A stretch of DNA of 59,474 nucleotides from Candidatus Binatia bacterium (GTDB taxonomy: Bacteria; Desulfobacterota; Binatia; Bin18). A program made the position numbers and the translations under genes. The notes below the pieces were generated by a model that worked only from the letters and a program-made list of their open reading frames with translations, was not told where the DNA came from and ran no database searches. Below, in pieces: positions 4,375 to 55,545 of this stretch (positions are counted from its first letter, which is position 1; each line of letters opens with the position of its first letter). The stretch spans positions 1 through 59,474 of the forward strand of contig JAJDZM010000225.1 in the NCBI GenBank assembly GCA_022824615.1, written 5' to 3'.

Positions 4375-4417
4375 AGCGACGAGATGCTGGAGACGTTTCC
4401 TCTTCGCGGAATGGGCT

Positions 4418-5239
4418 TTACAGTTGGAACTGCATCATGCCGAAGCCCACGACCATGGTTCCTTCTTCATACATGACGACTTCGCCTCGTGCGCCTTCGA
4501 CTGCCCCGGCCACCGCAATCCAGTTCCGGATTTCGTGCGTTCCGTTGCCGACCGCATCAATCTCCGCATCCGTAATATCGAACATGGCCGGGTCCTGTTG
4601 GCACAGGAGGTCGAGGAATTTTTTATCAAAGTGCGCGTCCACCTTGCCCATGTCCGGCGTGCCAACCGCATGCGACAATCCCCCCGTGCCGAGCAGAGCC
4701 ACGCGGCGGGAGCTGTCCCACGACCGGATGGCTTGCCCGACCATCCGCCCGAAATCATAACACCGCTTCAGGCTCGGCAGGGGCGGCAGGACGCAGTTCT
4801 GAATCAGCCACAGATAGGACATGTCCCACCGCGGCGTCAAAAAGTTCAGACAGGTCAGAAATCCATGGTCTAAGCCGACTTCACCAATTCGCGTCAAGTC
4901 GAAGCCTTGGCGGACCCCCTCGTCAAGGACCGCTTCGGCCAGCTCCGGTTCAAAATTGACCGAGATACTATTGCAGGGCATGCCGAGCCAGTTTTCGACC
5001 GGGCCGACGCTCGTCTCAGCCGTCACCACGCCGAACGACGGGTAGCGACGCGGGTCGAGCGCATTAAAATGTTCGTCTGAGATCACGACGATCGTATCGG
5101 CTCCGGCCGAGGTAAAGGTTTCTCGGAGGGTATCGAAGCCCGTATTGATCCTCCCCCAGGTGGCCTCATCCGCCATCTGGGGCGCGCTCATCATCAGGGG
5201 ACTGTGAACTGACGACATGGCTGCAACGATGTCCGCCAT
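4418..5239 (-). CDS. Class III extradiol ring-cleavage dioxygenase (LigB-like)
   Basis: SVHSP, DEH, LDHG, GTGGLSH and HEIRNWI motifs. Confidence 0.85.
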   Translation of the reverse strand: MADIVAAMSSVHSPLMMSAPQMADEATWGRINTGFDTLRETFTSAGADTIVVISDEHFNALDPRRYPSFGVVTAETSVGPVENWLGMPCNSISVNFEPELAEAVLDEGVRQGFDLTRIGEVGLDHGFLTCLNFLTPRWDMSYLWLIQNCVLPPLPSLKRCYDFGRMVGQAIRSWDSSRRVALLGTGGLSHAVGTPDMGKVDAHFDKKFLDLLCQQDPAMFDITDAEIDAVGNGTHEIRNWIAVAGAVEGARGEVVMYEEGTMVVGFGMMQFQL

Positions 5240-5261
5240 TGGATTCTCCTTTTTCCTTCCA

Positions 5262-5299
5262 TCCCCTCTCCCCTGGAGGGAGAGGGCTAGGGAGAGGGG
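5262..5299 (+). repeat. REP-like dispersed palindromic repeat, copy 1
   Basis: TCCCCTCTCCCCTGGAGGGAGAGGGCTAGGGAGAGGGG; near-identical copies at 53632, 55348 and 58800 (inverted). Confidence 0.8.
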
Positions 5300-5406
5300 G
5301 CCTCAAGTCTTTACCCCAGCCCCAATTCTTTCTTCGTTACTTTCAGGCATATCTTCTTCTTAGTCGGATGAGTCGGAGCGGCGCATAATGTGTTCTCAAC
5401 AAAACT

Positions 5407-5817
5407 CTACCACCAACTTTCATATTTGAACTTCTTCCCGTTTCTTTTGCCGGTGTGACGGACCCGTCCGTCTTGGTAAGCCGTGATCTTTCCCTTGTAT
5501 TTGTTGCCGCTCTCGTCTTTGTATTTATACCGTCGGAGTGTCGCCCCCGGTGGTGGCAGACCCAGCATATCCCGCACTAGGGTTTCGGTTCTCGTTGCTC
5601 CCGGCTCCAGACCCACCGCGTCCCGTAGCTCGGCCTCAGCGATGCCGGCAGCAAGTGCATTTTGATCGACGGGCGGTCTTTGATGGTATGTGCCATAGCC
5701 TGATAACATACGGGCCCAGTTGCCCTGGGGCGTCGGTCCACACCCCGCCAGGAGCAGTAGTGCTCCGATACCGACCAGTGCCCCCATCTGCCGCCTTACC
5801 GCTGAAAAAGTTTTCAT
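5407..5817 (-). CDS. Putative lipoprotein, unknown function
   Basis: Basic N-terminus, hydrophobic stretch and LAGC lipobox; Lys/Tyr-rich C-terminus; starts 8 nt after the aor stop. Confidence 0.6.
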   Translation of the reverse strand: MKTFSAVRRQMGALVGIGALLLLAGCGPTPQGNWARMLSGYGTYHQRPPVDQNALAAGIAEAELRDAVGLEPGATRTETLVRDMLGLPPPGATLRRYKYKDESGNKYKGKITAYQDGRVRHTGKRNGKKFKYESWW

Positions 5818-5825
5818 TGCCCGGT

Positions 5826-7685
5826 CTACTCCAACCCCAGCTCTTTCTTCTTTGCCTCGGAGATGATGCCGTCCTTATCCCAGCCTCGCAGTTCGTAATA
5901 CTCGGGCAGCATCTCACCCAGTCGGTTGACCTCGCCCTTGGCCGGGCCGGACGGGATGGGCTCTTCCAGAATCCGCTTGGGCAGGGTGTCGTCCTTGCCG
6001 GTGAAGCCCGCCCGTTCGTTCCACAGCCGCTCCAGGTTCCAGATCCGCTCCCCAATGTGGACCAGTTCTTCCAGCGTATACGGCACGCCCGTGGCGGCCG
6101 ACAGTTGGGGCAGCATCTCCTCCAGACCTACGCCGAAAGTGAGGAATTGGCACAGGCCGGTGGCATCAACGGTTGAGGTGGCGTCCTGGAAGATTTTAGT
6201 AATCTCCGCCTTCTCTTCTGTGGCGCGCGGGTCCATCTGACGCGGCAGGCCCAGAATTTCGGCCGCCACCGTATAGGCTTTCAAGTGACACGCCCCGCGG
6301 TTGGAAGTTGCATAGCCCAGGCCCATGCCCTGAATGGCGCGGGCCTCGTACGCGGCAAACTCCTGACCGCGGACGCCCATGAAGAACTCGGGTCGGCCCA
6401 GCGTCTCGGTCATGCGTTTGGAGCCTTCGGCCACGGCATCACCAAAGCCCTGCCGGTAGGCAGTCTTCTCGGCCATGGCGACGAGGGCTTCCGCGCTGCC
6501 GAACTCCAGCGGAATCTCGGTTTCGTCTTGGCTGACCACACCCTTCTCGAACAACTCCATGGCCGCGGCTACGCTGGCCCCAAAGCTGATGGAATCCATA
6601 CCCAGGTCGTTACACAGCCAGTTGGCCTTGATCAGCGCGTCCAGGTCGCCCACGCCACACTCCGAGCCCATGGCCCACGCCGCTTCGTACTCGGGGCCCT
6701 CGCCGGCGATTTTCCAGTTTTGCGGATTGGTGGTGACCGAGTATTTCGAGGAGGCCTCGCCCGGCAGAGTGCTGACTCGCCCACAGGCAATGGTACAGGA
6801 AAAACAGGCTTTATTGGCGACCAGGCGGGTTTCGGTCAGGGTTTCACCGCTGATGTTTTCGGCTTCATCAAAGACGGTCTGCTGATGGTTGCGGGTCGGT
6901 AGCGCGCCGTGCTCGTTAATCACGTTGACCAGCACTTCGGTGCCGTACATGGGCAGGCCCTCGGCGGTCACGGGCGACTGCCGCAGCTTTTCCTTCATGG
7001 CCCACTGGCCTTCCAGATATGCCTGCGGGTCTGCCAGAGAGACCCCGCCGGTGCCGCGCAGGGCAATGGCCTTGAGATTTTTGGAGCCCATCACCGCGCC
7101 CACGCCGGACCGGCCCGCGGCCCGGTGCAGGTCGTTCATGATACAGGCAAAGCGTACCAGGTTTTCTCCGGCCGGGCCGATGCTGGCAATGATGGTGTCG
7201 GGTACGCCGAGTTCGGTGCGGAGGGCCTCTTCGGTCTGCCAGACCGTCTTACCCCACAGGTGGGTCGCCTCGCGCAGTTCCACCCGGTCGTCATAGATCC
7301 ACAGATAGGACGGCTGCGCGGCCTTGCCCTCCAGGATGATCATGTCATAGCCGGCGAATTTCATCTCCGGCCCCCAGAAGCCGCCGGAATTCGAGGTGGT
7401 AATGGCGTTGGTCAGTGCGCCCTTGGTGACGACCATATAGCGTGAGCCACAGGAGGCGTTGGTGCCGGTCAGCGGCCCGGTGGCAAAGATCATCTTGTTT
7501 TCCGGGCTAAGCGGATCGACGCTGGGGTCCATCTCTTCGGAGAGATATTTGACGCCGAGCCCGCGACCGCCGACATAGTCTCTGGCCCATTCGGCGTTCA
7601 GCGGTTCCTTGGTGATGGTGCCGGTGGTCAGATTGACGCGCAGGACAGTCCCGGTCCAGCCGTGCATTGTGTTCGTCTCGCTCAT
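5826..7685 (-). CDS. aor: Tungsten-dependent aldehyde:ferredoxin oxidoreductase
   Basis: GGRGLG, SIGPAGE, AGRSGVGAVMGSKNLKA, CFSCTIAC, EYE, GMDSIS and RGACH motifs. Start moved to ATG 7685 (MSETNTM), which has an AGGAGG RBS. Confidence 0.92.
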   Translation of the reverse strand: MSETNTMHGWTGTVLRVNLTTGTITKEPLNAEWARDYVGGRGLGVKYLSEEMDPSVDPLSPENKMIFATGPLTGTNASCGSRYMVVTKGALTNAITTSNSGGFWGPEMKFAGYDMIILEGKAAQPSYLWIYDDRVELREATHLWGKTVWQTEEALRTELGVPDTIIASIGPAGENLVRFACIMNDLHRAAGRSGVGAVMGSKNLKAIALRGTGGVSLADPQAYLEGQWAMKEKLRQSPVTAEGLPMYGTEVLVNVINEHGALPTRNHQQTVFDEAENISGETLTETRLVANKACFSCTIACGRVSTLPGEASSKYSVTTNPQNWKIAGEGPEYEAAWAMGSECGVGDLDALIKANWLCNDLGMDSISFGASVAAAMELFEKGVVSQDETEIPLEFGSAEALVAMAEKTAYRQGFGDAVAEGSKRMTETLGRPEFFMGVRGQEFAAYEARAIQGMGLGYATSNRGACHLKAYTVAAEILGLPRQMDPRATEEKAEITKIFQDATSTVDATGLCQFLTFGVGLEEMLPQLSAATGVPYTLEELVHIGERIWNLERLWNERAGFTGKDDTLPKRILEEPIPSGPAKGEVNRLGEMLPEYYELRGWDKDGIISEAKKKELGLE

Positions 7686-8261: not shown

Positions 8262-9072
8262 TCGTTTCTTGTACCGGCCTCGCGGCCCAGGCTCAGGGAA
8301 TGCCTGTTCAACCAACTCAACTATCCAGTCCACATCATGTAGAACGAGATCAATTCCTGCGGCCATCGCCGGCGTCATCCGCACCGACTGGTGTATCCGA
8401 CAAAAATTGTAGTACAGGAAATACAAGCAGATCATCGCCACATGATTCGCGGCCTTCTTGGAGAAGGCATTAGTCTTGCGCGTGAACCGGCGCATACACA
8501 TGCGCATCGTCAGGTTTTGCCGTTCGACATAAGCAGTTGAAATATGGTTGGGGTCAGGATTGCCCGACACCACCAGCGTGTCGCCAAAGCCTAAGTCCTG
8601 GGCATAATCTACGCCCCGTCCAAAGGCGTCGGAAATCGCCTCGGCATAGGCAGCATATCCGTCTGTCGTCAGTTGGCAGGGACCCGCCAGCCTCCCATTC
8701 AGATCGCGCAGAAAGGTGGTGGCGTATGTCAGACTCCGACCGCCCACCAAATAGGCAATGATGAGTTTGCTGTCGGCATCCAGGGCCGTCCATGTCCAGA
8801 TACTCCCGGCGTCGGAGGGAGCGGTTGGCATCTTGGCGACCTGCTTGGCCTTGGCGTACACATAGGACCATATCTCGTCGCACTGTATGCTCGGCCTCAA
8901 CATTGCGGAGATGCACATCATGGTAGGCAGCAGCAACTTTCCCCGCCTGTATGAGGAGGGTCTTTATGGTATTGAACGCCACACCAGTGATACGGTTGGT
9001 CGCCCGCATACTAGCCCCGTCCAATAGGGTCCGCAGCACCTGGACCCGCTTGTCATGAGGAATCCGGTTCAT
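8250..9072 (-). pseudogene. IS1-family transposase, frameshifted near 8887
   Basis: The N-terminal HTH part (MNRIPHDKRVQVLRTLLDGASMRATNRITG) is in ORF 8554..9072. The catalytic part (QCDEIW, WTWTALD, TTDGY, STAYVERQNLTMR, RRFTRKTNAFSK) is in ORF 8250..8936, a different frame. Confidence 0.85.
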
Positions 9073-9108
9073 TCGTCGAATCGTCTAACTGATTGTTTTT
9101 ATTGGACT

Positions 9109-9137
9109 ATTATGGATCAAAAGCAGTCAGATGTCAA
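9109..9137 (-). promoter_or_regulatory. Sigma70-type promoter for the transposase
   Basis: TTGACA-N17-CATAAT on the minus strand, about 37 nt upstream of ATG 9072. Confidence 0.65.
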
Positions 9138-9188
9138 CCGTTTTCCGGGGAAAGGTTCACTGCGGAGGGGGACCATCGGGCGAGAAAA

Positions 9189-9644
9189 TCAGGCAGCCAA
9201 CTTCCACTCTCCTTCCTTCTCTGCCATCAGCTCGAATGTCATCTCTCGCCTATGAGCCAGCTCATCTTCGAGATCGGCAATATGTTTCAACTGATCTTTG
9301 ATAAAGCTTTCCGAGCGCTCCATATACATAAATCTCAACCATGCCTCTGCTGCTCTTGACATGCTCGCTTTGCCTGTTTCCCATCGGTGAATGGTCTGCT
9401 CGCTGACATCGAGCAGGTGCGCCAGTGTGGATTGAGACATCAGCAACTCTCGACGCAGAAACCGAATCTCTTTTCCATTCAAGTCCTTTTTGTCGAGACA
9501 GAGATGCCTGCCAATGGCCCGATGGAGTGTATCAATGTCCCTGATGGCAATACTCGTTCCCCTCCTAGATTTCTTGCGTACAAATCCATTCACTAAATAC
9601 ACGTCATCGAGCCCGCATTCCACATAATGATATTTCTCATGCAT
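9189..9644 (-). CDS. XRE-HTH antitoxin-like regulator (MqsA/HigA-like)
   Basis: N-terminal YHYVECGLDDVYLVNG; HTH EIRFLRRELLMSQSTLAHLLDVSEQTIHRWETG; lies downstream of a DUF4258-like gene. Confidence 0.75.
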   Translation of the reverse strand: MHEKYHYVECGLDDVYLVNGFVRKKSRRGTSIAIRDIDTLHRAIGRHLCLDKKDLNGKEIRFLRRELLMSQSTLAHLLDVSEQTIHRWETGKASMSRAAEAWLRFMYMERSESFIKDQLKHIADLEDELAHRREMTFELMAEKEGEWKLAA

Positions 9645-9668
9645 AATCCTCCCTCCGTTGATATACTT

Positions 9669-10001
9669 CTACCAAGTGGTGATGCACTCCACATGGTCCA
9701 GGCAGACCGCCACCAGGACAGTCACGCGCCGCCCAGCAACCTTGCGACGCATCTTTATCCGCCAATCGCCATATTCATCCTGGTTGGCGCGTCCGATGGG
9801 TCTCCCATCACGCAAGACCTCCAAAACCGACCGCATATCGATCTCTCGTTCTAACATGCGCTCCTGAAAATGCGGTTCACCCATACGAACATTCAGACTA
9901 TCTGCCACAGATAACGTCCTCACACGCTCTGCCAGAACGTCTACTGAAGGCTCCTGCTTCTTCCGCCGCCTCTTGTGAATCGACACAACCTCCGCACCCA
10001 T
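9669..10001 (-). CDS. DUF4258-like putative toxin
   Basis: HFQERMLEREI...VLEVLRDG...C-terminal ITTW pattern; toxin-first arrangement with the HTH gene. Confidence 0.65.
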   Translation of the reverse strand: MGAEVVSIHKRRRKKQEPSVDVLAERVRTLSVADSLNVRMGEPHFQERMLEREIDMRSVLEVLRDGRPIGRANQDEYGDWRIKMRRKVAGRRVTVLVAVCLDHVECITTW

Positions 10002-10003
10002 TA

Positions 10004-10026
10004 CAACCTACCAATATGGTAGGTTG
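10004..10026. promoter_or_regulatory. Palindromic operator of the TA-like operon
   Basis: CAACCTACCA-ata-TGGTAGGTTG with perfect 10-bp arms. It overlaps the -10 of a minus-strand TTGACA(10040-10035)-N16-CATATT promoter and ends 2 nt before ATG 10001. Confidence 0.7.
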
Positions 10027-10067
10027 AGTTTCGCTGTCAAGGGGAGATTAGAGCGGACAAAACACGC

Positions 10068-10096
10068 TTGACATCTTCCCTTGTCCTTCTTACTCT
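10068..10096 (+). promoter_or_regulatory. Sigma70-type promoter for the plus-strand passenger ORF
   Basis: TTGACA-N17-TACTCT. Confidence 0.5.
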
Positions 10097-10240
10097 GCCA
10101 GTCGTCTTCATCATGTAAGTGACCCGCGTGTTGGGTCGCTTGCTGAATACAACAGAATCTAGTTGTATGGGAGTCATGACCCGTACACTCGAATAGGTGA
10201 AACCTCGCATTTACATTGAGGTGCATCTGGAGCCGAGGCA

Positions 10241-10639
10241 ATGACCGCAGAGGAGCGTGCTGTGCGCTTCCAGGCGGGCGTTAAATGCTGGAAAGGAATG
10301 TCGGAGGAAAATTGTCAGCGACGGATTGAAACAGCGGTACGACATTGGAGGGCAAAAAAGGCATACGAGCGTCGTAAAGCGGAACTGGATAAGCTGGAGC
10401 GTACTGCATCACGATTATCATTTATTGTGGTGTCGCACTCCCCATATCCCGACGTGTGCCAAACTGTTCAGGAGTGCAATGAGAAGGCAGAGGAAATGAT
10501 GGCCGATGTGCGCCAAGCGAAGAAGGAAAACTGGATACAATATCAACGCGCTATTGGGAAAGAGATTCCCAAAGAATCAACTATCGTGGAAGATTACTTT
10601 AGAGCCAAAGGCTGGATTAAAGAAGGAGCAAAGCAATGA
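10241..10639 (+). CDS. Hypothetical protein (IS passenger)
   Basis: 132-aa charged, helical-looking ORF with a GAGG RBS; no recognised motif. Confidence 0.5.
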   Translation: MTAEERAVRFQAGVKCWKGMSEENCQRRIETAVRHWRAKKAYERRKAELDKLERTASRLSFIVVSHSPYPDVCQTVQECNEKAEEMMADVRQAKKENWIQYQRAIGKEIPKESTIVEDYFRAKGWIKEGAKQ

Positions 10640-10644
10640 GTGAA

Positions 10645-10812
10645 TCACTTGCGCCCATGACGCTTCCGAGGTCCTTTCGCTGTATGAATCATCACCGTTT
10701 TCCGTGCAGAAGCAGGACTCTCTGACACCTGTCCCGTTGCGATCTTCGCAACCTGTACAGCGGCTGCTGTATCACTGGCTGGGCGTTTCTGACCTTGCGG
10801 CCCTGTTGGCAT
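10645..10812 (-). CDS. Small basic protein at the IS end (MPTGPQGQKRPA... type)
   Basis: 55 aa with a GAGG RBS; resembles the MPxGPxGxKRPxD...IATG small proteins I recall near the ends of this IS1 subgroup. Confidence 0.6.
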   Translation of the reverse strand: MPTGPQGQKRPASDTAAAVQVAKIATGQVSESPASARKTVMIHTAKGPRKRHGRK

Positions 10813-10871
10813 GGTTGCACCTCTCTGGCTTTGAAGTATGCATAGGAGGGAGAGGCAATGCAAGGGTGCAG

Positions 10872-10892
10872 ATTTCAAATTGACGCACTACC
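10872..10892 (-). repeat. Terminal inverted repeat (right)
   Basis: ATTTCAAATTGACGCACTACC, exact reverse complement of 8241..8261. Confidence 0.93.
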
Positions 10893-10953
10893 CAGGCGGT
10901 CTGGAACAATAACCAGCCTCACTTTTCCGTGGCGAAGGTCATTCCTGGGCTAC

Positions 10954-11685
10954 TTACCGAATAACCTGTAAACGCTTAACAAAGGCCGCGTGCTCAGGCG
11001 TCTCGACTCCTGTCTGGAGTTCGGCTAAGACTTGCTCTACATCCCCAGCCAGCAACGCTTCAACAGCGAGACGCAGGCCGGGGAAAATCCGGCTGTGGAG
11101 CAGGCCGGCGGTATCCGGCGTCAGCGGCCGGTATTCATCGTCTATCAGCATAAACCAGTCGAGTTGTTTCTCGTACACCCGCCAGACCAGATATTCTTGC
11201 ACGCCGTTGCGCCGGTAGGCCCGCAGCTTGTCATGCAGATCGTAGGCCGCGCTGCTGGCCGCAATTTCAACGATCAACTCCGGCGCTCCCTCAACGTAGT
11301 CGTCCTCGCTCAAACGAGAACGACCACCGGCTTGCGGCTCAATACGCAGCAGTGCGTCGGGTTGAGGTTCGTTGTCCAAGTCCAGACGAACCGTGGCATT
11401 ATCAGCTACCCGAACCCCCGAGGTGAAGGCGCAGTAGGTCCCAAGCCAAGTCAGAACGGCGACATGAGGTTCTCCGTGACCGGCAAAATGGACGGGTGAC
11501 GGCATGTAGACGACTCCCTCAATTAATTCGGCCTTTTTGATATCCAACCGAGCAGTATAGCGACGTTCAAACTCACGCCGGGTGAGTCGGTCGCCGTTTT
11601 CTAGCGGAAGTGGGCGCACTCCAGACAGAGGGTCAGATGTGCTTGTGGAAATAGCAGGGTTGCCCTGAACATTATGGACAGTCAT
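10954..11685 (-). CDS. Uma2 family endonuclease-like protein
   Basis: LENGDRL, AELIEGVVYM, PQPD, PELIVEIA and GVQEYLVW motifs. Confidence 0.9.
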   Translation of the reverse strand: MTVHNVQGNPAISTSTSDPLSGVRPLPLENGDRLTRREFERRYTARLDIKKAELIEGVVYMPSPVHFAGHGEPHVAVLTWLGTYCAFTSGVRVADNATVRLDLDNEPQPDALLRIEPQAGGRSRLSEDDYVEGAPELIVEIAASSAAYDLHDKLRAYRRNGVQEYLVWRVYEKQLDWFMLIDDEYRPLTPDTAGLLHSRIFPGLRLAVEALLAGDVEQVLAELQTGVETPEHAAFVKRLQVIR

Positions 11686-23763: not shown

Positions 23764-24795
23764 ATGAGTGATGCTCACGAACATGATACTGGCGCGGCCT
23801 TTCAGCAGCGCCAGTTGACACCCGACCGGAACCGTGAACGCGAGATTCAGGTCAAGGCGATCGAAGCCCTGCTTGCCGAGAAAAATTTTGTTTCCACCGC
23901 ACTGCTCGATACCGTTCTGGACTCGTATGAAAACGATATCGGACCGTTGAACGGCTGTCGGGTCGTTGCCCGGGCCTGGACGGACCCCGCCTATAAGGCC
24001 CGTCTGCTTGAGAATGGCACCGCCGCCATAGCCGAGCTGGGCTTTGGCGGCTTGCAGGGTGAGCATCTGGTTGTGGTGGAGAATACGCCCCGGACGCATA
24101 ATGTGATCGTCTGCGCGTTATGCTCGTGCTACCCCTGGCCGGTTCTGGGTCTGCCGCCGTTTTGGTATAAGAGCCAGTCGTATCGCTCCAGGGTCACCGG
24201 CCGGCCTCGTGAAGTGCTCCGGGAGTTTGGGCTTGAACTGGACGAAAACATCCAGATTCAGGTCTGGAACAGTACCTTTCAGACCCGCTATATGATCCTG
24301 CCGGAGCGGCCGTCCGGTACGGAGCAGATGACGCTCGATGAACTCGTATCCATTGTTACGCGGGATGCGATGATCGGGGTGGCGCGGGTCGAGCCTGAGA
24401 AAAAACAGCCGTCCGGCCTTTCTCAGAGACAGGTGTCTGATATGCAGGGCCCTGCCGCTCTGCCCCGACGGAGTGGCGAACTCCAGTTCCAGGACCCTTG
24501 GGAAGGCATTGCTTTTGCCCTGGCGGTCGCCCTATGCGAACAGGGTCTGTATGCCTGGTCCGAGTTTCAAGAGGGCTTGATTGCCGAGGTTGCCAGCGCG
24601 GACCGGCAGGCACCTGAGACGCGACCAACGTATTATGAAAGCTGGATGGCCGCCTTTGAAAAGCTGCTCGACGCTAAAAACATACTGGCGCAGACCGCAA
24701 TCAATCGCCATGTCCGGCAGATCAAACAGAGCCTCTCTCTGCGCCGCACCCGTCTACCGTTTGGCATCCGGCCCTGGCCGGATGATGAAGGTTAG
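23764..24795 (+). CDS. nthA: Nitrile hydratase alpha subunit fused to an NHase accessory/activator (P14K/NhlE-like) domain
   Basis: Residues ~1-210: [36 protein letters not shown] and VTRDAMIG. Residues ~225-320: [25 protein letters not shown]...[13 protein letters not shown]. The frame is continuous. Confidence 0.85.
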
Positions 24796-24919: not shown

Positions 24920-26158
24920 TCAGCCGTCTCCCGGTGGTGGACCGGCGATAATTTTTTGGCCTTCCAAGTCCGCTAGTTTCTCTGAATCCAGTCCCAGGAC
25001 TTCCTTGAGAACAAGATAGGTGTGCTCACCGGGATGGGGAGCGCTGGGCAGGTCGGAGGGTTCCAGGTCGCGGGCTTCGATCACCGGGCCGGGCACCCAG
25101 ATCGAACCGAGATCGGGGTCGTCAACATGGTGGAAGCAGGGCAGGCCCCGAGCGTGCTGTTCCGCTTCGATACTGTCCCGACACGGTTCGACCACCAGCC
25201 CGGCCTGGCCCAGAGTCTTGAGTACCTCTTCCTGCGACCGGGCCGCAATCCAGTCGGCAATCTGTTGTTTAATCGTATCGACCCGCTCATAGCGGGCATG
25301 GTCGCCGTGAATCTCGTGGCCCTGCTCATCGAGAGCGAGGTTGCGCAGGCCGGTGGCTTCGCGCAGCCGACGTAAAACCGAATCGCCAATCAGATTCAGG
25401 GTAACGAACTTACCGTCTCGAGCGCAGTAATGGCCATGAACGGCATCCAGTAGATTGTCGCCGATCGGTTCCCGGCCCTCGCCGGTTGTCTCAGCCTGGG
25501 CATACCAGCCCAGCTCTGCCAGGGTTTGAAACGCGACCTGTTCCAGCGCGATCTGATAGCAGTCGCCCCGCCCGGTTTCCGCCAGACGGCGCAGGGCGAC
25601 GTGGAAGGCGTTCAGGCCATGCAATCCGGTGAGCATATCGAAAAACGCCACTGGAATAGTGAGCGGTCTGCCGTGCGGCTCGCCGGTAGCATGCGCTAAC
25701 CCGGTTGCCCCTTGCATGGAGTAATCGTTGGCCGCCCGTCCGTCGTGCCCACCGTCGAACTGGATTTTAATGACGGACGGCCCGCAGTGCTCGACCAGAT
25801 GCGTGTAGTCGAGCCAGGGCGCCATGCGCGGGGGCCAGTTGCTGATCAGTACATGGGTTTCTCGAATGAGGTCGAGCACGAGCCGTCTGCCCGCCTCCTG
25901 ACGAAAGTCGATGGCCACCGCCTGCATACCGCGGTGCAGCATCTGCCAGGGGATGCTGACACCGGCCCGATTCAGGGGGCCACGCTCCCGGTCGGGCAGC
26001 CCGCGGCCATGATGCGCTCCCATAATGGGCTCGACCAGAATGACGCGCACGCCGAGTCGCATCAATTCGAGCAGCATCTTGTTCGGAGCGACAAACAGCC
26101 CAATGGCTACAACGGTAATCTCCTCGCCGTCTATGCTGTAGCGTAATTGGAAGGACAC
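24920..26158 (-). CDS. Family III CoA-transferase, divergent mesaconyl-CoA C1-C4 transferase (Mct)-like
   Basis: AVAIDFR, ISNWPPR, DGRAANDYSM, FDMLTG, TGRGD and APHPGEHT motifs; GGAGG RBS. Confidence 0.75.
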   Translation of the reverse strand: MSFQLRYSIDGEEITVVAIGLFVAPNKMLLELMRLGVRVILVEPIMGAHHGRGLPDRERGPLNRAGVSIPWQMLHRGMQAVAIDFRQEAGRRLVLDLIRETHVLISNWPPRMAPWLDYTHLVEHCGPSVIKIQFDGGHDGRAANDYSMQGATGLAHATGEPHGRPLTIPVAFFDMLTGLHGLNAFHVALRRLAETGRGDCYQIALEQVAFQTLAELGWYAQAETTGEGREPIGDNLLDAVHGHYCARDGKFVTLNLIGDSVLRRLREATGLRNLALDEQGHEIHGDHARYERVDTIKQQIADWIAARSQEEVLKTLGQAGLVVEPCRDSIEAEQHARGLPCFHHVDDPDLGSIWVPGPVIEARDLEPSDLPSAPHPGEHTYLVLKEVLGLDSEKLADLEGQKIIAGPPPGDG

Positions 26159-26210
26159 GCTTCACCTCCTCTATCACATCAATGATACCACAGCACCGCA
26201 CTGGCAGGCG

Positions 26211-26239
26211 ATTATTCTAGGGGGGTGTCTGGCTGTCAA
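26211..26239 (-). promoter_or_regulatory. Sigma70-type promoter for the CoA-transferase
   Basis: TTGACA-N17-AATAAT on the minus strand. Confidence 0.5.
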
Positions 26240-26332
26240 GCGTAATTTGCCAAGTGAGAGGGCCACGCTTGAACTCTTACCAATGCTCATATTAAATCGC
26301 GGGCTGCCAACGTCTCCGAGAGGTAGGGAAAT

Positions 26333-26542
26333 ATGGACGAAACAAGAACGCCCCAATTTAGCGATTTAGTTGAAAAGCAGTTAAGTTCCGATGAAAACTC
26401 GCGCGAGCTATGGAGACCCATAGCCGATGAGTTTAATAGGGGCGGGGGTGGACCTGATGCTGCCAAGGAATACCTTGACGCCGAGGCGCAACGGCTCCTG
26501 GAACGTGTAGAGAAATTACTTGGTCAAGTTGAAGGAGGGTGA
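26333..26542 (+). CDS. Small acidic helical protein, first gene of the SMC cassette
   Basis: 69 aa with RBS; stop overlaps the next start (GTGA). Confidence 0.7.
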   Translation: MDETRTPQFSDLVEKQLSSDENSRELWRPIADEFNRGGGGPDAAKEYLDAEAQRLLERVEKLLGQVEGG

Positions 26543-28629
26543 AGCCAGTGGCAAGCGGGTTCCGTATCCAGAAGATTGCAATTGAAGGATTCAAGGGATT
26601 CACGACACGCCAGGAGATTGGTCTTGACGAGTGTCATGCCTTTTTGCTGGGACAAAATGGCAATGGGAAGTCAAGCATAGTTGAAGCCATTCGCTGGGGA
26701 CTCTTTGGTTCTATAAGAAGGCGGAATGAAATCGTGGCGAATCGGGATTATTCAGGCCGCTGCCACGTTGAGATTACGCTCGTGCGTGAAGGGAAGGTCT
26801 GGCATCTTCGTCGCACTTTGATAAAGGGCAGCAGTGGTGGGAGTGATGCTGAGCTTACCGATGACCAAGGTGGGGAACATCCTATTCGGAACATTATGCC
26901 CCAATTGGACTCTGCGGAGGCGGGTGAAGGGATGCACATCATTTTTGCGCCTCAATCCACTCCGCTCCGTCGTCAGCCTGAAGACCTCAGTCCATTTGAA
27001 AGGACTGTTTTTAACCACCTGGGGCTTGCCCACCCCCGAGCCTTGTTGAGCCAACTGGACGGTTTCCTAGAGACACAGGAATTTGGGGAGACGAATCTAG
27101 CAGATAAGCTCACTGAGGCTCGCCGGAATATCGACGGAGACATTAGCCAGCTAGAGCACCAAAGAGACGATATCGTCGGTTCGCCACCCTGGGGGAGCAG
27201 TCCTGCACCCTCAATTGCAGAGTCCGAGAACAAAGTGCGAGAGATTATCAAAAAAACCACTGGCAACCCACCTGACGAGGCTTTTTCAGGGCTATCGCTA
27301 GGTGCCCTGATTGACGAAGCGGAAGATGTTCTGGAAAACAGACGATCCCAAGACCTAGGCGAACTTGAAAAAGAGATGGAAGAGATTGTCGAACGCCGGG
27401 AGCGTCTGGAAGAATTTCTAGGAATTCAAGAGGAAATCGAAACGCAGCAGTCCAGAGTCCGAGACAAACAATCGGAACTTGACGACACATTGGAGGATAT
27501 GAGCCTCGACGAACTCCAGAATAGAGTCAAAGAAAAACGGGCGGCGGTAGATGCTGAAGACTTGAGGCGTCAGATAGCCGAAACAGCGACTGACTGGCTA
27601 CATCGTAACGAGGAGAACTCGGTATCTTGTCCTGTTTGCGAAACAACACACTCCAGGAAAGATTTGGCGGTGCTCCTTCAACAGATCATTGATAAACCGT
27701 CCGACGCGACAACTTCAGAGCTAAACCAACTCGAAGCCAAACTCAAACAAGTCGAAGACCTTAAACGTGAGGTTCAGAGCTTCAAGGGCGATCTTGATAA
27801 GCTGGAGCAAGAGGCGGAGACGATCAAGGCACATATTGATTCAGACGATACGAAAGAACTCCCTGAAAGGATTAAGGAATGTTCAGACCATGAGGCTTCA
27901 ATCAAAGAACAGATTGACGGGAGCGAGGACCGACTTAATGAAATAGGACGCCGGCTTTCCAATCTGAGGGAGGAAGACAGATTCCATGACATCAGAAAGC
28001 GGCTTGCGAGTATTAAGCAATCCAGAAAGCGATTTGAGGGTGTCGAGAAAGCATATCAAGACCTTGTTGCATTCGGTGAATCAGTTCGGTCAATACGGCA
28101 AGCGGTTGAGATTTGTCTAAGAGAGCGACTTGAGAACGATATTCCTCAAGTATCTGATAATCTTTCAAAAGTCTTTGCATCCCTCACTCGCCATCCGTGG
28201 TATGATCGACTGGCCATTGTAAAAGACAAATTGCCAAAGCTGGAGTTACAGGTGGCGAGTAGTCACGACCCTTCTGGTCGCGGATATCCCACCGATGTAC
28301 TGAACGGACAGTCCGAGAGTGCGTTAGAACTTGTCCCGTACTTCGCGTTCAGCCAGACGGACGATGCGCCTACCGAGGTGTATTTAGTCCTGTTGGACGA
28401 TCCCACGCGAGCGTTTGACGAAGAGCATACCGAGATATTGGTCGAACGCTTAGCCGAGTTGGGGAATCATGTACAACTCGTAGTTGCATCGCAGGAGACA
28501 TCTCGCTTTCGCTCGCTATTGCCGAAGAATTTCCAACCGGCCGACTATGTTATCGTTGAACCTAACCAGTGGACGCATTCCGACGGCCCGCAACTAACGA
28601 TTGAGCGTGATGAGTCGTGCCAGACCTGA
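26539..28629 (+). CDS. Rad50/SbcC/SMC-like ABC ATPase with zinc hook
   Basis: IEGFKGF, Walker A GQNGNGKSS, long coiled coils, central CPVC hook, Walker B/D-loop VLLDDPTRAFD. Confidence 0.88.
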   Translation: MKPVASGFRIQKIAIEGFKGFTTRQEIGLDECHAFLLGQNGNGKSSIVEAIRWGLFGSIRRRNEIVANRDYSGRCHVEITLVREGKVWHLRRTLIKGSSGGSDAELTDDQGGEHPIRNIMPQLDSAEAGEGMHIIFAPQSTPLRRQPEDLSPFERTVFNHLGLAHPRALLSQLDGFLETQEFGETNLADKLTEARRNIDGDISQLEHQRDDIVGSPPWGSSPAPSIAESENKVREIIKKTTGNPPDEAFSGLSLGALIDEAEDVLENRRSQDLGELEKEMEEIVERRERLEEFLGIQEEIETQQSRVRDKQSELDDTLEDMSLDELQNRVKEKRAAVDAEDLRRQIAETATDWLHRNEENSVSCPVCETTHSRKDLAVLLQQIIDKPSDATTSELNQLEAKLKQVEDLKREVQSFKGDLDKLEQEAETIKAHIDSDDTKELPERIKECSDHEASIKEQIDGSEDRLNEIGRRLSNLREEDRFHDIRKRLASIKQSRKRFEGVEKAYQDLVAFGESVRSIRQAVEICLRERLENDIPQVSDNLSKVFASLTRHPWYDRLAIVKDKLPKLELQVASSHDPSGRGYPTDVLNGQSESALELVPYFAFSQTDDAPTEVYLVLLDDPTRAFDEEHTEILVERLAELGNHVQLVVASQETSRFRSLLPKNFQPADYVIVEPNQWTHSDGPQLTIERDESCQT

Positions 28630-29131
28630 TGCAAGCGAGTGTATCGAACGCATACGCTCAAGCATCTCCCCAGGTGAGTTTGGTTACAAAATCCAAGCTC
28701 TTGCCGCGCATATCTTATTACGTCTCGGCTATCGGATAGAGGCGGTCAACCGCGCAGGTCATCCAGATATCGTCGCTATCGGAGGAGGAAGGGAGTTCCG
28801 ATTTGAGGTGGAGGCCGAAGCATTCGGGCCGCGTCCTCGTCAGTTGACCGCCGCCGACTTCGCCTCGCTGATTGAAACTCCCAACATAGTCGGCTACTAC
28901 GCGCTGGCAATTAGTTGTCCTAAGCCTTACTGGGTACTGGTGCCAGCCTCGATACTTGCTTGCAGAACACGGCCTGCCCCAAACATTCTGCTGGAAGCCC
29001 TCAGTGATAAAGAATACTCGGCGGAATGGACACGCGAGTACGTCGGACTGCTTCAGGAGGCGTGCCGTCAAGTCAGACTGGCATCGTTCAGCGACCTATG
29101 CGAAATGGCGTTAGAAGGGCACGGGCTATGA
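28610..29131 (+). CDS. PD-(D/E)XK-like restriction endonuclease-fold protein
   Basis: LLRLGY...GHPDIVA...FEVEAE; overlaps both neighbours. Confidence 0.6.
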   Translation: MSRARPDASECIERIRSSISPGEFGYKIQALAAHILLRLGYRIEAVNRAGHPDIVAIGGGREFRFEVEAEAFGPRPRQLTAADFASLIETPNIVGYYALAISCPKPYWVLVPASILACRTRPAPNILLEALSDKEYSAEWTREYVGLLQEACRQVRLASFSDLCEMALEGHGL

Positions 29132-30090
29132 GATGTGAAGGTGGAGTTCTGAATAAACCAAAGAACCAACACTTATATGTTCCAAAATCCATCATAAAGA
29201 ATTTCGTTGATCCATTAGCCAGTCAGAAGAAGGTTTTCAGCGCTCGTAAAGATCGACCTAACAAGGTAAGAAATTGCTCGCCTAAAAAAGTATTCACTGA
29301 AGGCGATGTATTTACGTTACATAACGAGAGACCGGAGAATCGTTATAGAGTAGAGACCTATATCAGTAGAGTGGAGAATGGCTTTGCTGCCGTCTATCAT
29401 AAGAAGATACGTCCGGCTGTTAAAAGACAAGAATGTCCCGCTCTATCTGCGAACGACCTCGGAGCGGTCATTTTGTTCTTCGCCTTGCAAGCTAGGCGAT
29501 CCCTTGCAGGGAGAGGTGCGGCAGAAGACTACATACACTCTGACGAAGCCGTCAATGACTTGACCGATGATTTTATTAGATATGAGAGAAAAAGGTATAT
29601 TGGCTATGGCAACATAGTCTTGCCTGGCACATATAATAATGTTCGTAGCTGTATTGCTCTAGGTCTCAAAAGAGTTGACGTAAAAGAAATGTCCGCAAAG
29701 GCAATGCTTGCGCAGGAAGATAGAACTCACCCTAACTCATTGAGCCATGAGCTCTGTAGAAGGGGATTGACTATAGGAGTGATTAAAAATCCTACGCCCA
29801 AGAATAGCTTTGTCCTTGGGAATAATCCCATTATAGAGGCAGGCAGTGGAGGCTCTTCTAATCTGAAGACAAACCCGGAAGCGGAACGTATACTTCCCAT
29901 CGCGCCCGACGTAGGAATATCCTTGGTAGGCCCTACAGGATCAGTAAGTCTGATCTCACTTGAGGACATAAGCCACATCGAAGAATTAAACTTAGCTGTG
30001 ACCAAACAGAGTACCGAAATTGTCGCTAACAACAGAGAATTATTGGAAAGCTTGGGACGTAGTATGTGGTGGGAGCGAGTAGCAAAATAG
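29128..30090 (+). CDS. DUF4238-like protein
   Basis: N-terminal QHLYVPKSIIKNF, ETYISRVEN, FVLGNNP and LPIAPD patterns; ATGA overlap with the upstream stop; low GC. Confidence 0.7.
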   Translation: MRCEGGVLNKPKNQHLYVPKSIIKNFVDPLASQKKVFSARKDRPNKVRNCSPKKVFTEGDVFTLHNERPENRYRVETYISRVENGFAAVYHKKIRPAVKRQECPALSANDLGAVILFFALQARRSLAGRGAAEDYIHSDEAVNDLTDDFIRYERKRYIGYGNIVLPGTYNNVRSCIALGLKRVDVKEMSAKAMLAQEDRTHPNSLSHELCRRGLTIGVIKNPTPKNSFVLGNNPIIEAGSGGSSNLKTNPEAERILPIAPDVGISLVGPTGSVSLISLEDISHIEELNLAVTKQSTEIVANNRELLESLGRSMWWERVAK

Positions 30091-30149
30091 CGGCTGATAA
30101 AAACTTCCCTTTACCAATGAGAGCCCGGTCGAGCCAGACTGCGTGGGTC

Positions 30150-31187
30150 TTACCGACAGTGCGGAAGGACTTCCCTGGCAAAGCGTTCCATCGAGCGTTT
30201 GACAATGGCGTGATCGACCAGCCCGCCCTGGTTGAAATAGCCAATAAACTCGGTCATGGGAAATTCCTGCTTGAAGTGCCGAATGCGTTCGATGCAGTAA
30301 TCCGGGGCGCCAAAGGCGCCCATCTTGTTGTCCAACCCCTCGTAGTTAACCCGCTCCAATCGCTCCACTATCTGTTGAAAGGCTTCGTAGCTTTTGATGG
30401 TGGTCTTGCCGAGCGGACGGAGCCGTTCTCCTGCGGCACGAAAAAAATTCATCAGGCTCGGTTCGTATTCCTCCCGGGCTTTGGCCCGGCTGTCGGCAAC
30501 GTGGACGGGAAACATCAGCGCGACATCGGGCCGGACCCCAGGGTTCAGATTACGCTGATACTCCGCGATATAGTCGCGCAGTTTATCGGGTGGGTTAATC
30601 AACGGAGAAGCAAAGATCGACAGGCCGAGCTGCCCGGCTAAAGCAAAGGTGTCCGGGCTGTTTGCCGCCATGCGTATCGGAGGGTAGGGCTGCTGAATGG
30701 GACGCGGCACGACCGGCAGATCCTCGGCCTGGAAGTATTTACCCTGATAGGACAGACGGTCCGTTGTCCAGGCGGTGCGAATCACGTCGAGGGCTTCCGC
30801 AAAGCGCTCCCGACTCTCTTCCATAGGCACGTTATAACCTTGGTAATGCACCGGCGCGGTGCCGCGTCCGACGCCGAACTCCAGCCGTCCGCCGCTCAGA
30901 ATATCGGCGGTGGCCGCTTCTTCCGCCATTTTCATTGGGCTGTGCAGCGGCAGCAGGGTGACGGCGGTGCCCAGACGGATGCGCTCGGTATGCTGGGCCG
31001 CGGTTGCCAGCACCATCAGTGGCGAGGCCATAATCGAGGTGCTCGGCCCAAAGTGCAGTTCGCCCAGCCAGACGGTATCAAAGCCGACTTCGTCGCCCAG
31101 GCGAATCTGGGCCAGAATATCGTGGTAGCGCTGGCGCTCTGACTGCGTGGGCGCGCACGGCAACTGATCGAAAAACCCAAAGCGCAT
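30150..31187 (-). CDS. LLM class flavin-dependent oxidoreductase
   Basis: MRFGFF, GFDTVWLGELHF and AEEAATADILSGGRLEFGVGRG motifs. Confidence 0.9.
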   Translation of the reverse strand: MRFGFFDQLPCAPTQSERQRYHDILAQIRLGDEVGFDTVWLGELHFGPSTSIMASPLMVLATAAQHTERIRLGTAVTLLPLHSPMKMAEEAATADILSGGRLEFGVGRGTAPVHYQGYNVPMEESRERFAEALDVIRTAWTTDRLSYQGKYFQAEDLPVVPRPIQQPYPPIRMAANSPDTFALAGQLGLSIFASPLINPPDKLRDYIAEYQRNLNPGVRPDVALMFPVHVADSRAKAREEYEPSLMNFFRAAGERLRPLGKTTIKSYEAFQQIVERLERVNYEGLDNKMGAFGAPDYCIERIRHFKQEFPMTEFIGYFNQGGLVDHAIVKRSMERFAREVLPHCR

Positions 31188-31227
31188 GAATCCCTCCTTA
31201 TTTGCTTGGGCGTATCGTTCGCTCTTT

Positions 31228-40106: not shown

Positions 40107-40571
40107 ATGACCATGTTTCCTCGTGCTGATCTTGCTCTCTACAATCGTGATGGACAGCTCATTGCTGTTGTCGAAGTGAAGAACAAGTTAGGAACATCAG
40201 CCCTTTGGGCCGCTCAGTTGCGCCGTAATATTCTTGCCCACGGAGGTCTTCAGAACGCGCCCTATTTCCTTCTTATGACACCGGATCGAATATACCTCTG
40301 GAAGGATGCTGGGACCGACCCTGTCTCTGTCTTTCCAACCTATGAAAGGGTAGCTCAAGACATCTTTTCATCCTATTTTGATAGATCGGCTATAGAGCCG
40401 AGTGAGGTAAGTAGTGCCGCGTTTGAGCTTATTGTGACAGCATGGCTAGGGAATCTTGTCAGGACGGCAGACAAGCCGGAGGATTTGACGAGTGAAGTCT
40501 CCTGGCTTGTTGAGTCCGGATTGCTCGGTGCACTTCAAGACGGGCGTCTTGAGTACGAAGTTGCCGCGTGA
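40107..40571 (+). CDS. Hypothetical protein with N-terminal PD-(D/E)XK-like motif
   Basis: ADLALYNRDGQLIAVVEVK; GTGA overlap with the next gene. Confidence 0.6.
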   Translation: MTMFPRADLALYNRDGQLIAVVEVKNKLGTSALWAAQLRRNILAHGGLQNAPYFLLMTPDRIYLWKDAGTDPVSVFPTYERVAQDIFSSYFDRSAIEPSEVSSAAFELIVTAWLGNLVRTADKPEDLTSEVSWLVESGLLGALQDGRLEYEVAA

Positions 40572-41185
40572 ATATCTACGTTGAAACGAATTTCGTTCTT
40601 GAATTGGCTTTGGAGCAGGAGCAACGTGAAAACTGTGAGCAGATCCTTTCTCTGTGCGAGAAGGGCAAGGCTCAACTCATCATTCCTGCCTACTCTTTTG
40701 CTGAGCCTTCCGAGACGCTTACGCGGCATCACGGGGAACGAGAGCGGTTGAAAATAGCTCTTGACCGGGAATTGCAGCAACTCGCGCGTACCGAATTATA
40801 TAGGAGTCGGCTGAGTGATCTACAGAGTTTGACAACTCTCCTCATAGACAGTGCGGACGATGAAGCAAAACGATTTGACGCCACTCGCTCTCGGCTTCTC
40901 AAAATTTCCGAAATCATCCCCCTCACCGCGCAGATTTTGGGCGAAGTGGCTCGTAATCAAAAGGTACACGACCTCTCTCCTCAGGACGCTCTGGTCTATA
41001 CGTCCGTCCTCCAACATCTCAAGCAAGGTGTTTCAGCCCAGGGGTGTTTCTTAAACAAAGATAGAGATTTTAATGATCCGGATATTGTTGAAGAACTGAG
41101 CACGTATAATTGTAAGTTGTTCCCTCGATTCGATAGCGGCTATCAATTTATCCTGCACGCGATTTCTCAAGCTTCGCCTCTCTGA
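40568..41185 (+). CDS. PIN domain protein
   Basis: IYVETNFV, SFAE, DALVY and NKDRDF acidic motifs. Confidence 0.75.
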   Translation: MNIYVETNFVLELALEQEQRENCEQILSLCEKGKAQLIIPAYSFAEPSETLTRHHGERERLKIALDRELQQLARTELYRSRLSDLQSLTTLLIDSADDEAKRFDATRSRLLKISEIIPLTAQILGEVARNQKVHDLSPQDALVYTSVLQHLKQGVSAQGCFLNKDRDFNDPDIVEELSTYNCKLFPRFDSGYQFILHAISQASPL

Positions 41186-55263: not shown

Positions 55264-55274
55264 GGCCTGTTCAT

Positions 55275-55288
55275 ACAAGATTTCTTGT
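55275..55288. promoter_or_regulatory. Candidate enhancer/operator palindrome
   Basis: ACAAGA-tt-TCTTGT, about 200 bp upstream of the sigma-54 promoter and next to the activator start. Confidence 0.3.
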
Positions 55289-55347
55289 TCCATGCAAAGT
55301 TTTGTGTGACCCAATTCCCTCCTTTTCCCGGAGAGAGGCATGTTTTT

Positions 55348-55384
55348 TCCCTCTCCCCTGGAGGGAGAGGGCTAGGGTGAGGGG
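55348..55384 (+). repeat. REP-like repeat, copy 3
   Basis: TCCCTCTCCCCTGGAGGGAGAGGGCTAGGGTGAGGGG. Confidence 0.8.
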
Positions 55385-55482
55385 GAAATGCAAACTGAAT
55401 CACTGCCCAAAAATGGAGTTCAATAGCCAAGCGTCGTTAATTTCCGTACAGTGGGGCCGTTCAATGCAAGGCGGTACCATCG

Positions 55483-55498
55483 TGGCACGGGAGTTGCA
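55483..55498 (+). promoter_or_regulatory. Sigma-54 (-24/-12) promoter
   Basis: TGGCAC-GGGAG-TTGCA with exact GG-N10-GC spacing, 47 nt upstream of ATG 55546 and facing away from a GAFTGA activator. Confidence 0.85.
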
Positions 55499-55545
55499 CT
55501 ATCCTCTAAGCAGAAAGCTGAACAACGGAACCGGAGAACAAGAAC

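Follow-up and report, generated by a model that had tools for sequence, protein, structure and literature searches.

Within a 59,474-nucleotide contig of a Candidatus Binatia bacterium (JAJDZM010000225.1, assembly GCA_022824615.1), here called the window, four co-oriented genes, g1 to g4, fill positions 26333-30090, all on the + strand. An earlier note on this DNA, made from its letters, had taken the four for a single candidate defence system built around a Rad50-like ATPase. We found that g1, g2 and g3 are a conserved three-gene module, a horizontally spread accessory trait, and that this trio is probably a new Lamassu-related defence variant, as predicted from its genes and from structural models. 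The four genes are as follows.

26333-26542, + strand: g1, a small protein of 69 residues, proposed to be an accessory or adaptor subunit.
26539-28629, + strand: g2, a coiled-coil ABC ATPase of 696 residues, of the Rad50/SbcC/LmuB type.
28610-29131, + strand: g3, a protein of 173 residues from its ATG (the longest open reading frame, ORF, begins with TTG at 28601), with a PD-(D/E)xK, Hjc-like fold; the proposed effector.
29128-30090, + strand: g4, a DUF4238 protein of 320 residues from its ATG (the longest ORF begins at 29026); a candidate for separate, single-gene defence.

The reading frames are joined exactly as the earlier note had described: g1 and g2 share a GTGA at 26539-26542, g2 and g3 overlap by 20 nt (28610-28629), and g3 and g4 share an ATGA at 29128-29131. 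Its counts of reduced G+C content (GC), 29/60 at 27781-27840 and 21/60 at 29581-29640, were also exact. Over whole genes, GC is 0.505, 0.503, 0.554 and 0.438 for g1, g2, g3 and g4, g4 being the lowest in the island, compared with 0.617 and 0.595 for the flanking genes. GC at third codon positions (GC3) is 0.44, 0.51, 0.55 and 0.42, compared with 0.705 for the CoA-transferase gene on the left and 0.711 for the luciferase-like gene on the right. Pfam assigns g2 to SMC_N (1.9e-15) and g4 to DUF4238 (3e-19, 70 bits, cut-off 27), and no Pfam family matches g1 or g3.

A scan with a g3 profile, covering one genome per species by way of two peptide patterns, returned 31 related loci, which is a lower bound. 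Nineteen of them lie in Dehalococcoidia, 3 in other Chloroflexota, 2 in Binatia, 2 in Latescibacterota and one each in Gammaproteobacteria, Paracoccaceae, Vicinamibacterales and Rhodothermaceae; the one remaining locus is a degenerate copy (L031). Together they span seven phyla or more. By tblastn, the order g1-g2-g3 is kept in 30/31 loci, and a g1 homologue lies directly upstream of the ATPase gene in 30/31. When the 474 ORFs of these loci were clustered, only the g1, g2 and g3 families were widely common, the next family being present in 4 loci. Thus the linkage and gene order whose conservation the earlier note had wished to see checked are indeed conserved for three genes, whereas the four-gene order occurs in 0/31 loci.

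DUF4238 itself was found in none of the 31 loci, so that the four-gene unit of the earlier note shrinks to three. In the syntenic locus L001, from a Binatia metagenome-assembled genome with the same flanking genes, homology covers window positions 24929-29139 and 30149-31199, and 148 bp take the place of 29140-30148, that is, of the DUF4238 gene. g4 is therefore a separate indel of ~1 kb, independent of the trio. Of the two roles that the earlier note had offered for it, the separate add-on is borne out and the second effector is not. That all four genes make up one system, with DUF4238 as a second effector, is hardly plausible: the ATGA overlap of g3 and g4 and the presence of all four genes on one contig of another sequencing run, X4, at ~93% identity would agree with it, but DUF4238 is missing from every related locus, the indel relative to L001 is clean, the GC of g4 differs, and the DUF4238 family works as a single gene (PMC9122126, the part cited here).

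g4 matches PF14022 over profile positions 1-278 of 281. According to the cited part of PMC9122126, a DUF4238 member from an E. coli P2 hotspot, the only one with known activity, confers strong resistance to phage T7 as a single gene, and a 2024 preprint, in the portion used here, lists the family as Rst_DUF4238. The near-full match and the behaviour as an independent gene agree with the single-gene defence of Rousset et al. (2022). g4 thus belongs to an already known single-gene defence family and is not new, and its own protective effect would follow from analogy with that family. The novelty suggested by the earlier note is accordingly confined to the trio, which has no specific match to a described system. 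Most likely g4 is a defence gene in its own right, which in this lineage came to lie immediately behind g3. It is distant from phage-borne DUF4238 members, and tblastn gave no match to it at 1e-3 in 50,697 phage records. A second, short DUF4238 match of 37.9 bits, in an open frame of 119 residues, lies elsewhere in the same genome, on the 1.9-kb contig C306 (locus L083).

We then turn to the distribution of the trio. The g3 profile matches 1/301 genomes sampled from the phylum, namely the window's own, and finds nothing in G110, a genome of the same genus with 100% completeness. The genes lie in an island with the following limits and neighbours.

26197-30149 (approximate limits), no strand: strain-variable island carrying g1 to g4, marked by contig breaks and a drop in GC3.
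24920-26158, - strand: CoA-transferase gene, left flank of the island.
30150-31187, - strand: luciferase-like monooxygenase gene, right flank of the island.

In three other sequencing runs, the contigs that cover the flanks diverge from the window at 26192-26199 and at 30149-30150; in run X4, one contig of 4008 nt covers 26196-30182 with all four genes, at 293 differences and 11 gaps. The contigs of the other sequencing runs showed no joints. The tree of g2-type ATPases mixes phyla and contradicts taxonomy. Compared with L001, the ratio of nonsynonymous to synonymous substitution rates (dN/dS) is 0.21 for g1, 0.39 for g2 (first 510 codons) and 0.17 for g3, with 0.08-0.09 for the flanking genes; the trio genes are real and under selection. 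The synonymous rate (dS) is 0.36-0.45 for the cassette, near the 0.50-0.51 of the flanks, which suggests that within this lineage the trio was inherited with the chromosome.

These data also bear on the possibility that the trio serves a mobile element, in its maintenance, in addiction or in competition between elements, rather than defending the host. The strain-variable island with its sharp ends, and the TnpB and toxin-antitoxin genes found near some of the related loci, are what such a role would lead one to expect. However, no integrase, transposase or repeats flank the island in the window, a search for direct repeats at the island ends found none, collections of plasmids, phages and viral contigs hold no match, and the dS values speak for co-inheritance with the chromosome. 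We regard a mobile-element role as very unlikely.

The sequence of g2 carries the landmarks of a zinc-hook ATPase: Walker A GQNGNGKSS at 38-46, CPVC at 364-367, LNGQSE at 588, the Walker B LLDDP at 618 and VASQE at 649. Among 27 aligned homologues, C364, C367 and V587-L-N-G-Q591 never vary, and at Q652 the only exception seen is a His in L006. Because of this near-uniformity, the states of the motifs pointed out in the earlier note (CPVC, LNGQSE and VASQE) are traits of the family and not chance. The AlphaFold2 (AF2) model (pLDDT 79.4) runs from one head half through ascending helices to a hairpin at 361-372 that holds CPVC, and back through a return helix to the other head half. By sequence, the best match in the PDB is Rad50 (5.3e-9). 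By structure, the best Foldseek match is again Rad50 (7zr1_C, 7e-16), with cohesin, MukB and JetC close behind and Lamassu LmuB at ranks 13 and 15. The degenerate motifs suggest ATP binding with slow hydrolysis, by analogy to E-to-Q mutants and to LmuB (PMC10586767, the part cited here). Wadjet/JetC, Gabija/OLD, Septu PtuA and PARIS AriA were rejected as identities of g2, since they match only its N-terminal P-loop region, with 22-29 bits.

The AF2 model of g3 (pLDDT 90.0, pTM 0.87) has a restriction-endonuclease-like alpha-beta-beta-beta-alpha-beta core, in agreement with the nuclease-like character assigned to it earlier. VIA-align places the Holliday-junction resolvase Hjc first (1ob8_A, Z 9.5, root-mean-square deviation (rmsd) 3.0, 108 residues aligned), and all six chains at Z>=8 are nucleases of the PD-(D/E)xK fold. 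Foldseek likewise finds Hjc (2wcw_C, 3.9e-3), and the nearest Atlas cluster carries an Hjc annotation on 41% of its members. Compared with Hjc, RecU, I-Ssp6803I and NhoI, g3 has the same core fold (Z 9.5-8.5, rmsd 2.8-3.1 over 108-115 residues) and conserves the Asp and Glu of motifs II and III, at an identity of only 10-24%. It differs from them by a helical C-terminal part (residues 125-173) beyond the core fold, by the replacement of the ExK Lys with Glu in its clade, and by being always encoded behind an SMC-like gene.

The motifs are GHPD at 50 and FEVEAE at 65, and the putative catalytic residues are Q29, D53, E66 and E68, together with R64. The family comprises 252 homologues, all of them unnamed and without a Pfam assignment. 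Among 1.84 billion representatives searched with a profile, only 160 relatives came up; all of the 150 listed are at most 197 residues long, and among these 150 g3 is never a domain of a larger protein. Of 101 full-length superfamily members, 98 retain D53, 91 E66, 96 Q29 and 98 G25. The PD...EVE that the earlier note had set against ExK is present in g3, but it is a clade-specific change, the 'K' position being K in 53 and E in 40 of the 101. Where this position is E, an R or K stands two residues ahead of the motif Glu in 26/40 sequences (R in 24/40), compared with R or K in 4/53 of the K group. This hints at a charge swap between E68 and R/K64, read from related sequences whose count is not independent. 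An ExE site can be active, as in BamHI.

No family in Pfam, PADLOC or NCBIfam covers g1, and an Atlas search gave no usable match. It has two conserved stretches around a Gly/Pro-rich loop, RGGGGPD, and reading the sequence we take it for two helices joined by that loop. In an alignment of 28 sequences (A3), L26, W27, A31, R36 and L48 are invariant.

We further co-folded g2, g1 and g3 with their own alignments and with g3 as the scored partner, the modelling that had been suggested for this locus. g3 reached an ipSAE of 0.69 (runs at 0.00, 0.69 and 0.72), compared with 0.00 for the best of 3 controls. The 0.69 mark is reached by 58/80 solved complexes and by 2/110 mismatched pairs, a calibration that is only rough for three chains with their own alignments. 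For the partner, pLDDT is 77 or higher, and contact agreement between the runs is at least 0%. The predicted interface joins residues 181-203 and 503-517 of g2, in the coiled coil just above the heads, with residues 73-76, 103-104, 115 and 118-131 of g3. The model supports binding of g3 to g2 without showing it. The coiled-coil base of Rad50 is also the place where Mre11 binds.

A sister group, called K-type here, carries the same kind of operon. At L039, an SMC-like gene whose product is 22% identical to g2 over the full length is followed by a g3 relative of 180 residues with D...EVK, the canonical motif. The K-type set consists of L039, L040 and nine loci from a metagenome scan queried with a single protein (P0157). 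The ATPase gene lies directly upstream of the g3-like gene in 11/11 loci, and a small ORF of ~61-73 residues precedes the ATPase directly in 8/8 loci with upstream sequence. In their central motif these small ORFs are similar to g1. One of them is picked up by the g1 profile (1.2e-7), L075 has just the C-terminal part, within a longer ORF call, and the others were recognised by reading. Clear defence neighbours stand at 5/11 K-type loci, namely OLD-type nucleases (L058, L077), a restriction-modification (RM) pair with TIR (L070), HerA (L074) and BrxL (L078), and 2 further loci have ambiguous ones. Among the close loci, 7/30 (L005, L011, L012, L014, L016, L019, L027) have RM, GmrSD, PDC-S39 or RmrA-like genes within two ORFs, a raw count; one further close locus has a weak PycC-like match nearby, and three others have PIN-domain ORFs. 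For Lamassu, a share of 25-27% defence genes among the neighbours is reported.

Some surroundings of the SMC-like genes deserve separate mention. At L058 (G013), the K-type trio is bracketed upstream by an OLD/AriA-like ATPase-nuclease (Old model 178 bits, 4152-6167) with a WYL-like ORF, and downstream by a KaiC/RecA-like ATPase of 446 residues (9606-10946); these surroundings are possibly a larger island, or further partners of the K-type variant. At L047 (2805-5498, G264), an ORF of 76 residues, an SMC-like ATPase of 616 residues and an ORF of 160 residues without a family follow one another. At L045 (2520-5436, G026), the small ORF upstream of the SMC-like gene matches PADLOC 'mad1' with 49.6 bits. 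The SMC-like genes of both loci encode a CxxC hook and hhhhDDP as Walker B, and further three-gene families of this kind may exist.

With respect to SbcCD/Mre11-Rad50, g2 shares the zinc-hook coiled-coil ABC ATPase, and the model predicts a nuclease at the coiled-coil base. The trio differs in that a PD-(D/E)xK protein stands in place of the Mre11/SbcD phosphoesterase, in that it is accessory, and in that g2 has 696 residues compared with 1048-1111 for SbcC. The LNGQSE, LLDD and VASQE of g2 correspond to LSGGE, LDE and SH/TH in SbcC of E. coli and of the same genome. As the earlier note had observed, no Mre11/SbcD-type gene is present, here among the 18 neighbouring ORFs scanned. The genome encodes its canonical SbcD (178.7 bits, the only one above the cut-off) and an SbcC of 1111 residues side by side on another contig, C32. 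Since the canonical SbcCD is encoded elsewhere, the trio is not the housekeeping enzyme.

The trio might nevertheless be an accessory repair or recombination machine, an SbcCD analogue whose Hjc-like nuclease cleaves hairpins, cruciforms and junctions at stalled forks. In favour of this, g2 comes closest to Rad50 in both structure and sequence, g3 comes closest to Holliday-junction resolvases, docking is predicted at the coiled-coil base, the site of Mre11 on Rad50, and most close loci have metabolic neighbours. However, the genome already has a canonical SbcCD and the trio occurs in just one of the 301 sampled genomes of the phylum, its base composition is foreign and its tree contradicts taxonomy, the signature, Walker B and H-loop of g2 are degenerate, unlike those of SbcC, and the sister group stands amid RM, OLD, TIR, HerA and BrxL genes. 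A role in repair is therefore unlikely.

For Lamassu, PADLOC gives g2 a match to the LmuB model PDLC03859 (1.2e-25, 88.8 bits), true LmuBs scoring 346-503 bits; g1, g3 and g4 have no PADLOC match (for g3 at E<=1). The same model reaches E<=1e-10 in 174/301 genomes and in 11/14 control genomes, and gives 84 bits on the genome's own SbcC. The LmuB match of g2 is unspecific because housekeeping SbcC and other coiled-coil ATPases score alike, and a PADLOC LmuB match below ~100 bits is no evidence for Lamassu. The PADLOC check advised earlier thus returned an LmuB hit, yet no specific model call for the trio. In 8/12 loci fetched with the LmuB model (L033-L035, L037, L038, L041-L043), co-oriented ORFs of the sizes of LmuA, LmuC and LmuB follow in that order. 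L033, the only one checked with PADLOC models, gave 122 bits for LmuA, 42.8 for LmuC and 503 for LmuB. The long-LmuB model PDLC03865 had no match at 1e-40 in 201 genomes or in the controls, so that the comparison is one with short LmuB.

Similarities to LmuB are nonetheless evident in g2, which has the general LmuB traits of a short coiled-coil ABC ATPase with Walker A GQNGNGKSS, LLDD and a single CPVC at the apex. After Walker B, g2 and LmuB share hhhhD[D/Q]P[S/T], where SbcC has DEGFG. In a tree of ATPase heads (42 rows, a quick IQ-TREE run without bootstraps, rooted on SbcC, L057 being the genome's SbcC beside SbcD), the g2 clade (100), the K-type clade (96) and an LmuB group (85) fall into one group of 30 rows, with a Shimodaira-Hasegawa-like approximate likelihood ratio test (SH-aLRT) support of 88. 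This group excludes both SbcC sequences as well as DndD and PbeC, which form their own clade (97). The head tree and the Walker B motif, together with an order of small protein, ATPase and nuclease, bear out the earlier suggestion of a Lamassu-like system with a different gene order.

Both the trio and Lamassu consist of three components around a Rad50-like coiled-coil ATPase that is short and whose catalytic motifs are weakened, with a small protein encoded directly before the ATPase and an effector with a nuclease fold. The conserved g1 occupies the position of LmuC directly before the ATPase, without matching an LmuC model, and LmuC is too diverse for sequence methods according to the cited part of PMC12663957. 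The order in the trio and its K-type relatives, small protein-ATPase-nuclease (30/31 and 11/11 loci), differs from the LmuA-LmuC-LmuB of Lamassu (DdmABC), and the proteins are smaller: 69 residues for g1 compared with 158-192 for LmuC, and 173 for g3 compared with 222-334 for LmuA in the fetched loci. g3 is without an LmuA-type C-terminal domain of the usual size, and the H-loop His of the compared LmuBs is Gln in g2. With hhalign, g1 reaches a probability of 0.3% against 8 LmuC sequences, and the g3 family 0.2% against 8 LmuA sequences, which are short-type and from one phylum. By these tests the trio does not appear to be a member of the Lamassu subtypes sampled here, and Lamassu appears from the sequences to be its nearest known kind.

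The trio could instead be an already catalogued Lamassu subtype, or a predicted system of the 'ABC-3C' type, that the 2023 PADLOC models miss. An ABC ATPase classification, Krishnan et al. 2020, is said to define 'ABC-3C' systems that cover Lamassu. The sections of PMC12663957 cited here describe a 12% gain in Lamassu detection through iterative searching and 1,320 families of LmuB homologues, and name a single CxxC and hhhhDD, both seen in g2, as traits of long LmuB; the tree places g2 near LmuB. In true Lamassu, however, LmuA, LmuC and LmuB follow one another and all three are recognised, whereas in the trio only g2 scores, unspecifically; the hhalign values are minimal, and g3 is neither fused, among the 150 matches listed, nor provided with the usual LmuA C-terminal domain. 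A full-text literature search, with the supplements of PMC12663957 and Krishnan et al. 2020 outside its reach, also found no description of the trio. We consider such a known subtype improbable.

DndD and PbeC, which are used in defence, are, like g2, coiled-coil ABC ATPases with a metal hook, and their length is similar. They differ in that the hook of g2 is CxxC and not CxC and that no DndE lies next to it. As a DndD/PbeC candidate g2 was rejected, with 51.9 bits on the PbeC models compared with 569 for PbeC and 736 for the genome's own DndD. Contig C135 of the same genome (L056 831-4646) encodes a complete-looking DndC-DndD-DndE (666, 736 and 135 bits by PADLOC), and judging from these genes the genome also carries a phosphorothioation module.

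Taken together, it is fairly probable that g1 to g3 are a three-component, Lamassu-related defence module in which a slow Rad50-like sensor holds an Hjc-like nuclease, and anti-phage or anti-plasmid defence of the Lamassu/SbcCD type is the most likely function. The K-type sister group, with the same gene order and with defence genes nearby, strengthens this reading. g2 would dimerise through its CxxC zinc hook and its heads. It would sense DNA ends or abnormal replication structures in a slow, switch-like manner. Its Walker B has DD and not DE, its signature is degenerate and its H-loop His is replaced by Gln. g3 would sit on the coiled-coil base of g2, at the site where Mre11/SbcD holds Rad50/SbcC. 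On sensing, g3 would be released or switched on, probably by dimerising like Hjc-type nucleases, and would cut DNA, while g1 may be a third subunit that stabilises or regulates the assembly. In this scheme it is the binding, which comes from the model, the trigger, the nuclease activity and the defence role that we infer. A comparable arrangement, with LmuA and LmuC near the heads like SbcD, has been predicted for long-Lamassu complexes (PMC12663957, the part cited here).

Several observations weigh against a Lamassu-related defence module. On the side of relationship, the g2 profile misses 8 true or near LmuBs of the short type at E<=1, Foldseek with the whole g2 model fails to separate LmuB from Rad50, cohesin and MukB, and the Lamassu link in the head tree is weak, with an unresolved polytomy, long branches and an SH-aLRT of 88. 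As to the complex, one of the three runs scored 0.00. Conservation at the g2 side of the interface is 0.606 compared with 0.529 for the rest (permutation p ~0.07; sliding-window control 0.12), and at the g3 side it is 0.705 compared with 0.721, no significant enrichment. The catalytic Lys is replaced by Glu in this clade, so that from the sequence the nuclease activity of g3 is not assured.

The genomic setting also provides counter-evidence. Within two ORFs, most close loci (22/30) have metabolic or unknown neighbours only, and the immediate flanks of the trio in the window are metabolic genes. No match to g3 was found in 72,556 plasmid records, in 50,697 phage records or in viral contigs; plasmids and phages are places where many defence systems also travel. 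In addition, decay of the trio is frequent, although assembly errors are possible: the ATPase of L001 (4919-7020) is split into two frames near 6466-6472, that of L002 is without its first ~233 residues, ~830 bp are inserted between the ATPase and nuclease genes in L003 (6167-7001), and ~860 bp are inserted inside the ATPase gene of L013 (5497-6361).

It is possible, if doubtful, that the trio and its ExK-type sister group are not a Lamassu subtype but an old and distinct family of three-component Rad50-like immune sensors, either a separate offshoot of SbcCD in which a PD-(D/E)xK nuclease took the place of Mre11, or a form intermediate between SbcCD and Lamassu that has survived. If so, no smaller defence machine of the SMC type would be known, and the family would offer a direct way to test how a nuclease is held and released by such sensors. 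An origin of Lamassu from SbcCD is proposed in the cited part of PMC12663957, and the trio bears on that proposal.

SMC/Rad50-like sensors such as Lamassu and Wadjet represent a recently recognised way of detecting foreign DNA by its shape and not its sequence. As a Lamassu-related defence module, the trio would add a compact version of ~940 residues in total, with a permuted operon and with partners whose sequences are not related to those of LmuA and LmuC. Its carriers are mainly uncultured Chloroflexota, Binatia and other lineages from the environment, whose defence is poorly charted. The predicted docking of g3 on the coiled-coil base is an easy target for mutation and structure work.

In the remainder of the window, the 18 neighbouring ORFs scanned are metabolic except for a PIN-domain ORF ~10 kb downstream. 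A scan for promoters and terminators did no better than shuffles (5 vs 3.6; 5 vs 4.6). At 40107-41185, in a 1-kb stretch with a GC of 0.504, an ORF of 154 residues without a Pfam family overlaps by 4 nt with a following PIN_12 ORF (205 residues), a pair that looks toxin-antitoxin-like. The low-GC stretches at 9001-11000 (0.50-0.51) and 55001-57000 (0.46-0.50), in a window of ~0.58, may be other acquired islands. Finally, an ORF of 343 residues at 23764-24795 combines the alpha domain of nitrile hydratase (276 bits) with the N-terminal portion of the beta subunit, being either a fused form or an ORF call that spans two genes.

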